The position numbers and the translations under genes were made by a program. From the NCBI RefSeq assembly GCF_988242995.1, contig NZ_OZ547043.1: DNA of 64,000 bases; one strand, given 5' to 3'. Below the pieces are notes generated by a model, which did not search any database, had not been told where the DNA came from, and saw only the letters and a list, made by a program, of their open reading frames with translations. This document shows, piece after piece, positions 17,296 to 18,350 of this stretch. The first letter of the stretch is position 1. The number at the start of each line of letters is the position of its first letter.

Positions 17296-18050
17296 TTGAT
17301 GATGTGACCCTATTCTCTTCAGGTATGCTACCGCCCCTGGCTTAACAGCTACCAATACACTGGAGGTAATACTTGTTTGTAACTGGATAAAATTTACTCA
17401 GACGGTTTGACCTTTTTAATAGCCGCAAACAATTTCAGCAGAAATTATTTCCGCAGGGATAAATAGATCTATTTCCGTCTCGTTTCTTCTAATCCATTCT
17501 TCAGGCATGAATGTATTCGGTCTTCTGGTAATTTCAGAAAACTGGCCGTTTTAGAATGTAGAGTTAATTTCCCAGGAAATTATTTTTTGTTATTACTGTT
17601 AACTACTTGATTATAATACCCCCATGTATTTTATGCGTAACAATACCTGCAATCTGTTTCAAACCAGAACGCACGCGATTGATCACCAATAAATTGTTCA
17701 CTGAGAAACTATTTCCCTATTTAAAATTCACTCGTGTACTTCTTATTTATATCTACAGCCCCCTCTTTACAGCCATATTTGTGATTTATATCACATTTAA
17801 ATGGTGTTATTTAAGCCGCATCAATAATCCCGAAGGTAATTATTTTCGTCGATTAAAATATACATCTTGATTATTTTGTGTATTTATTTTAACCAGTATT
17901 ACAACCAACACCATCCCTCAGTAGATATACCTGAGCAGACATTTCTTAAAATCGACGAATAGTTTCACTGGAAATTATTATGCTTATTTGAAATTCCCTT
18001 TCTGATTATCTCCAGGAATTTTACTAATTTCCAAGCTACACAAAATACAG
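17296..18050 (-). promoter_or_regulatory. Region 3 promoter and long untranslated leader of kpsMT
   Basis: About 0.75 kb AT-rich non-coding DNA upstream of kpsM; region 3 promoters of group 2 loci are reported roughly 0.7 kb upstream of kpsM. Boundary approximate. Confidence 0.4.
17328..17335 (-). promoter_or_regulatory. ops (operon polarity suppressor) core GGCGGTAG, RfaH recruitment site in the region 3 leader
   Basis: Reverse complement of 17328-17335 is GGCGGTAG, 32 bp upstream of the kpsM ATG, as expected for RfaH-dependent region 3 transcripts. Confidence 0.6.
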
Positions 18051-18350
18051 ATAACACAAGAATTATCCTATATGTTTTGGCCTATCAATTGTTACTCAAT
18101 GATTTATTGCAACTATTAATAATCATAATGTGTCAAAACACTTAAGCAACTTTACAGTCTGAGAAAGGTGTCGATTAACGAAGGCTACATGGTGAAAAAC
18201 AGGTTCCTTCAGTGTTACCGAATATTCCGTGGTGGTCTGGAGGGAGATAATTCTTGCTACATCGAAAGTCAGCCCGGTGAGCGGGTTTGACAGTTCCGCA
18301 CTCACCATTGGACTAAGGGTTATCAGGTGGGGTTAAGGAAATGGCAATAC

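Follow-up and report, generated by a model that had tools for sequence, protein, structure and literature searches.

The kpsM-yghD interval of an Escherichia coli-type chromosome segment and its correspondence to the region 3 regulatory region of group 2 capsule clusters

The promoter PR3 of group 2 capsule clusters in E. coli (K5 and K1) was reportedly described by Stevens in 1997 and by Xue in 2009. It lies 741 bp upstream of kpsM and contains a -10 element and no -35 element; H-NS footprints around the transcription start extend from -135 to -21 and from +141 to +219, and an ops site lets RfaH carry transcription on into region 2 (PMC8960920). The presence of yghD beside region 3, with PR3 and ops conserved, is the standard organization according to the 042 genome paper, which also reports that the kpsM product of 042 is 99% identical to KpsM (PMC2808357). 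The island with a P4-type integrase at the tRNA-Phe gene pheV (GI-pheV; PMC11537424) occupies the same chromosomal neighbourhood and, in relatives, lies directly to the left of the kps module.

The window (the whole 64-kb stretch of DNA that was analysed) is an Escherichia coli-type chromosome segment with the group 2 layout, in which kpsFEDUCS (ca. 1604-9563, plus strand, from the ORF map) and kpsMT converge around a low-GC region 2 (9673-15765, minus strand, from the ORF map and the GC profile) and adjoin yghD. On the minus strand, the ORF map places kpsT at 15851-16522, and kpsM, which codes for an ABC-transporter permease and is the first gene of kps region 3, occupies 16519-17295, with its ATG at 17295 in the ORF list. 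The last gsp gene, yghD (gspM of the beta type II secretion system; 18351-18887), is on the same strand as kpsM and is followed by the rest of a complete beta type II secretion operon, also on the minus strand, and then by pppA, sslE, and glcA. The gene order is that of the annotated 042 locus, and positions 819-18400 are 99.8% identical to E. coli 042. The gene identifications made earlier from the sequence stand: yghD scored 406.5 bits against the cut-off of 352 of NCBIfam model NF007274, and the kpsM stretch shares the 99.8% identity to 042. KpsM itself scored 188 bits, below the 300-bit equivalog cut-off of NCBIfam model NF050053, although the 042 product is reported to be 99% identical to known KpsM proteins; the model may have been built on another subgroup.

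The interval upstream of kpsM compared with PR3

The interval between the kpsM ATG (17295, minus strand) and the yghD stop codon (18351-18353) comprises positions 17296-18350. Composition counts gave a length of 1,055 bp and a GC content of 35.9%, compared with 55.7% in gsp and 49.1% in the whole window, and no gene is called in it, in agreement with the preliminary description, which had noted ca. 1 kb of AT-rich non-coding DNA at this place.

A JUMPstart element is located 31 nt upstream of the kpsM ATG (17324-17362, minus strand). It aligns to the full length of Rfam model RF01707, positions 1-38 of 38, with 53.6 bits (E 1.2e-10; the gathering score is 35) and includes an exact ops site, GGCGGTAGC, at 17335-17327 on the minus strand. 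The transcribed strand carries the ops core GGCGGTAG ahead of a polysaccharide export operon, and no difference from the Rfam element was seen. The JUMPstart block is invariant in every allele aligned and is the best-conserved block of the interval. When the interval was searched against Rfam at a permissive E-value, JUMPstart alone scored above threshold; matches to CRISPR-DR63, ssnA, and SMAD5-AS1 fell below it and were rejected.

A second exact copy of the 9-mer GGCGGTAGC is present elsewhere in the window, at 8860-8868 (minus strand), where it lies antisense within kpsS, downstream of region 2, and on the path of the PR3 transcript. With 0.32 copies expected per window, this copy is probably due to chance.

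The published distance of 741 bp, applied to the window, projects the PR3 start to position 18036 (17295 + 741). A -10-like hexamer, TATTTT, is found at 18047-18042 on the minus strand, 6 nt upstream of the projected start, with no good -35 element, and we assign the predicted PR3 core promoter to 18036-18090 (minus strand). Conservation was determined from an alignment of eight alleles, including those of E. whittamii and Escherichia sp. E1V33. The TATTTT hexamer is conserved in all eight, mean pairwise identity is 0.95-0.97 at 18036-18075 and 0.90 at 18076-18095, and the 18036-18090 segment is among the best-conserved blocks of the interval, behind the JUMPstart block only. A generic σ70 promoter scan made no call at PR3 and called instead a weak TTGGAA/GATAAT pair at 18034-18005; sites called by such a scan in the interval were no more numerous than in shuffled sequences. 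The start is placed by distance and conservation only.

Counted from this start, the 5' untranslated leader of kpsMT (17296-18036, minus strand) would be 741 nt long, with a GC content of 34.3%. When the coordinates given in PMC8960920 are transferred to a start at ca. 18036, the downstream H-NS footprint (+141 to +219) projects to 17818-17896 and the upstream H-NS/SlyA footprint (-21 to -135) to 18057-18171. The GC content of the upstream segment is 28.9%, and such AT-richness is consistent with binding of H-NS and SlyA.

The mechanism by which H-NS, SlyA, and RfaH would act here is taken from the literature and laid over the projected start and footprints. Transcription dependent on σ70 would begin at ca. 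18036 on the minus strand, from a -10 element without a -35 element, and the AT-rich, H-NS/SlyA-binding flanks of PR3 would place it under temperature control. RNA polymerase would then pass through the 741-nt leader, pick up RfaH at JUMPstart/ops just before kpsM, and, once loaded with RfaH, continue through kpsMT into region 2, which is serotype-specific. We know of no binding sites for MprA, LrhA, and BipA, which also act on PR3.

The window resembles PR3 of K5 and K1 in position, in the 741 nt that separate the predicted start from kpsM, in JUMPstart/ops, in the AT-rich flanks, and in having yghD as a neighbour. No substantive difference was found, the window carrying the short-leader allele, and the adjacency of PR3 and yghD is also present in E. 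whittamii and Escherichia sp. E1V33. We conclude that the interval is already known: it is the published regulatory region in its standard place, and this region accounts for all of it but the last 179 bp (18172-18350).

A variant arrangement was seen in E. coli 19KM1803, a strain with a group 3 capsule (L003, 11000-12500), in which PR3, JUMPstart, and a frameshifted kpsM stub adjoin yghD and the leader positions equivalent to 17380-17921 are deleted. This arrangement suggests that in 19KM1803 a group 3 cluster took the place of a group 2 cluster at this locus.

Limits of the kps module and the location of attR

At least 80% of the segment 17296-18900 is contained in 1,591 of 5,426 complete E. 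coli genomes, and in ca. 2,700 of the 5,426 the match starts only at query position 1057 (position 18352 of the window). Genome matches, alignment with K-12, and junction sequences all place the right boundary of kps-specific DNA at the yghD stop codon (18351-18353, minus strand), which is TAG in the window and TAA in K-12; identity to K-12 begins inside this codon. The 148-bp spacer that separates pheV from yghD in K-12 is unrelated to positions 18200-18350, as judged by pairwise alignment.

The left side of the module was defined in other genomes. In 042, the closest genome, a P4-type integrase island comes after pheV, which lies 55.7 kb to the left of kpsF. The attR of this island, TTCGATTCCGAGTCCGG-CACCA (L002, 3097-3118), was located by edit-distance search 1.19 kb upstream of kpsF, in accordance with what PMC11537424 gives in Table 1 and in its methods. 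This attR has a 1-nt deletion and is detectable by edit distance, but not by a substitution-only search. After it come nucleotides 1-48 of the K-12 spacer, among them the terminator of pheV, and then kps-specific DNA. In RM14516 (L012, 20368-36759; 16.3 kb), pheV is followed by the same 48 nt, an IS110 remnant, kpsF to kpsM, PR3, and yghD. Neither an integrase nor another pheV fragment occurs at the kps locus of RM14516, and the two ends of its kps module have no word of at least 6 nt in common, making this strain a useful reference for the module boundaries.

Comparison with a kps-free genome had been proposed in the preliminary description as the way to define the insertion limits, and it did provide them. 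As read from these junctions, the kps module (IS110 remnant, kpsF to kpsM, and PR3) replaces nucleotides 49-148 of the K-12 pheV-yghD spacer without duplication at its ends, its right edge being the yghD stop, and it is an entity separate from the integrase island. Because the module has no integrase of its own and no end duplication, it would spread by homologous recombination and not by site-specific integration. From the absence of repeats and the existence of several junction alleles, we infer that the pheV and gsp DNA on either side provides the homology through which kps is inherited and exchanged. A P4-type pheV island, where present, is situated between pheV and the kps module, with its own attR on the kpsF side. 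Since this attR is on the far side, no tRNA-derived repeat is found beside kpsM, and none was ever to be expected there. The interval is not part of GI-pheV, and the window has no attR.

The window was searched for tRNA-derived sequences in several ways. An attR was recognized as a 19-23 nt copy of the pheV 3' end (TTCGATTCCGAGTCCGGGCACCA or known variants) after which comes the DNA that lies downstream of the tRNA at an empty site. ARAGORN detected no tRNA in the whole 64-kb window. The 23-mer from the pheV 3' end had no matches in the window at up to 3 mismatches, and the pheV 3' end had none at up to 4 edits, indels included; the edit-distance search recovered the positive controls in K-12, 042 (both the tRNA and attR), and RM14516. 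A blastn-short comparison of the window with pheV and the 148-bp K-12 pheV-yghD spacer returned chance words only. The earlier observation that the tRNA-Phe 3' sequence is missing from the interval and from the window start therefore extends to the whole window, and the tRNA scan and repeat search, named at that time among the checks, returned nothing within 17296-18350.

The left end of the window (1-818, minus strand) is the right end of an IS66-family, ISEc22-like element, and homology to 042 begins at position 819. The same IS66/kps junction is present in 25 genomes. In one of these, AST240, ISEc22 (L008, 18070-20520) borders a truncated DUF4942 gene and stands in place of 969 bp that in 042 comprise the 3' end of the DUF4942 gene, attR, and the 48-nt remnant of the spacer; a search of 41 kb of AST240 at up to 5 edits found no attR. 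As judged from AST240, one of the 25 genomes sharing the junction, attR was probably lost in the lineage of the window. No complete genome combines the K type of the window with the IS66 junction. The suggestion that both the tRNA and the repeat lie beyond the IS66 element is therefore borne out in part: the position of pheV in 042 puts the tRNA to the left of the window, but in AST240 attR has been deleted.

Two other explanations of the interval were considered. It could conceal an unannotated gene for a small protein or a small RNA, and two open reading frames are indeed present, one on the plus strand (17607-17870; 87 aa) and one on the minus strand (18123-18308; 61 aa). However, the longest ORFs of the interval (87, 61, and 40 aa) had no Pfam matches, the 87-aa frame begins with TTG and lies within DNA of 32% GC, and the 61-aa frame sits in the most polymorphic and indel-rich part of the interval. 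RefSeq annotates no genes in the equivalent of the interval in strain 042, and none there in the ca. 35 genomes, among the matches listed, that are full-length for 18060-18350. With JUMPstart as the only element above the Rfam threshold, we consider a hidden gene highly improbable.

The other explanation is that kps forms the distal end of a pheV-integrated island and that a tRNA-derived repeat once present between kpsM and yghD has mutated away. The linkage of kps clusters to pheV would fit such a history, and 34% of pheV islands have no recognizable attR (PMC11537424), yet at up to 4-5 edits no match was found anywhere in the window or the corresponding DNA of 042, RM14516, and AST240. Moreover, the attR of 042 is intact, 1.2 kb to the left of kpsF, with native pheV-downstream sequence after it; RM14516 carries kps without any island; and PR3 with its leader explains the entire interval except for 179 bp. 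A decayed junction at this place is extremely improbable. We conclude, with a probability of about 0.9, that the interval is the kps region 3 regulatory region and belongs to a kps module that has no repeats and is inherited through flanking homology. Of the preliminary view that the interval is a junction between a capsule island and the secretion-system backbone, the absence of a tRNA-derived repeat holds, but the DNA consists of PR3, the leader, and JUMPstart/ops and is not an anonymous junction. Annotation should accordingly label the interval as promoter PR3, leader, and JUMPstart of kps, not as an island junction, and should treat kps, from 48 nt past pheV or attR to the yghD stop, as a module apart from the pheV island. 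These limits bear on the delimitation of islands in ExPEC genomes and are consistent with published descriptions; beyond correct annotation, their importance is small.

Palindromes of the leader and the inverted repeat downstream of yghD

The palindromes of the kpsM leader and the hairpin downstream of yghD are the sole leads beyond published knowledge. The palindrome AATTTC-N4-GAAATT(ATT) occurs in the leader in three copies, against 0.42 expected by chance: P1, AATTTC-AGCA-GAAATT(ATT), at 17431-17446; P2, AATTTC-CCAG-GAAATT(ATT), at 17566-17581; and P3, AGTTTC-ACTG-GAAATT(ATT), at 17961-17976. In P1 the arms are invariant across alleles and the spacer is variable. Over all three copies, mean pairwise identity is 0.965 in the arms and 0.60 in the 4-nt spacers, compared with 0.844 in the leader, a conservation pattern equalled by 3 of 5,000 random triples. 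The weak Rfam CRISPR-DR63 match mentioned above (17561-17596) corresponds to the P2 hairpin. P2 is doubled in longer alleles of the leader, found in E69, E. whittamii, Escherichia sp. E1V33, UID2309, and NCCP12480 (L007, ca. 5400-5500; L009, L010, and L011). There, the two P2 copies flank 95-130 bp that are absent, at 17572/17573, from the window and from 042, whose short form yields the published 741-nt length. Comparison of the alleles suggests that the short form arose by deletion between P2 repeats.

Invariant arms with freely varying spacers are, on the evidence of the alignment, the pattern of a putative site for a dimeric protein or of a small hairpin. The palindrome matches no E. coli regulator consensus known to us. 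It is unlikely, in our estimate, that a regulator controls capsule expression by binding the palindromes as its operator, with the P2 deletion tuning that expression, and that, separately, the hairpin after yghD insulates capsule transcription.

The hairpin lies in the distal spacer of the interval (18172-18350), which has a GC content of 48%, is specific to kps-bearing genomes, and is absent from K-12. This is the most polymorphic part of the interval, with mean pairwise identity of 0.50-0.80, mostly 0.5-0.76. When 18060-18350 was used as a query, some spacer alleles were ca. 79% identical and others matched only the first 98 nt (18060-18157). There are at least two spacer types, which can barely be aligned with each other: type A is found in the window, 042, the group 3 strain, E1V33, and NCCP12480, and type B in UID2309, E69, and E. 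whittamii.

The preliminary description had pointed to an inverted repeat at ca. 18268-18308 as a possible gspM terminator. The repeat is real, though imperfect, and was mapped to 18276-18306 (minus strand), 45 nt downstream of the yghD stop. Its arms, GGTGAGCGG...CCGCACTCACC, would form a G+C-rich stem of 8-10 bp on minus-strand RNA, that is, in the sense of gsp. It thus resembles a Rho-independent terminator in being a G+C-rich stem-loop soon after the last gene of an operon. In contrast to such a terminator, the stem is followed by no U tract, the tail being GGGCUGACUUUCGAUG, and the predicted fold (-22.1 kcal/mol; z -1.66) is no better than that of shuffled sequences. A terminator scan returned no sites. 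We conclude that the hairpin is not a canonical terminator, because it has no U tract.

The hairpin might nevertheless be a functional 3' end of gsp, either a terminator or an RNA-stabilizing stem-loop, that shields PR3 and kpsMT from read-through. A terminator or insulator would make sense at this position, because gsp and kpsM are co-directional. Besides its location on the transcribed strand shortly after yghD and the stability of its stem, this role is favoured by the behaviour of the outer stem, GGUGAGUG/CACUCACC (8 bp), which is kept in all three type B alleles despite an entirely different loop and very different flanks, with a U.G pair changed to U-A; type B also has an A/U-rich stretch after the stem. 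Survival of the stem in type B hints at possible selection. On the other hand, apart from the missing U tract, the empty terminator scan, and a z score within the range of shuffles, one pair is broken in the E1V33 allele, and the ca. five distinct sequences show a single one-sided change and no compensatory pair of changes. A role of the hairpin at the gsp 3' end is therefore possible but doubtful.

The divergence of spacer type B reaches 12 nt into yghD, and the 3' end of the gene (18351-18365 in the window; L006, 9264-9842; L007, 6271) is itself polymorphic, its product ending in LEFGGG* in the window and K-12 and in LELIRG* in type B. In NCCP12480, yghD is 14 codons longer and codes for 192 aa.
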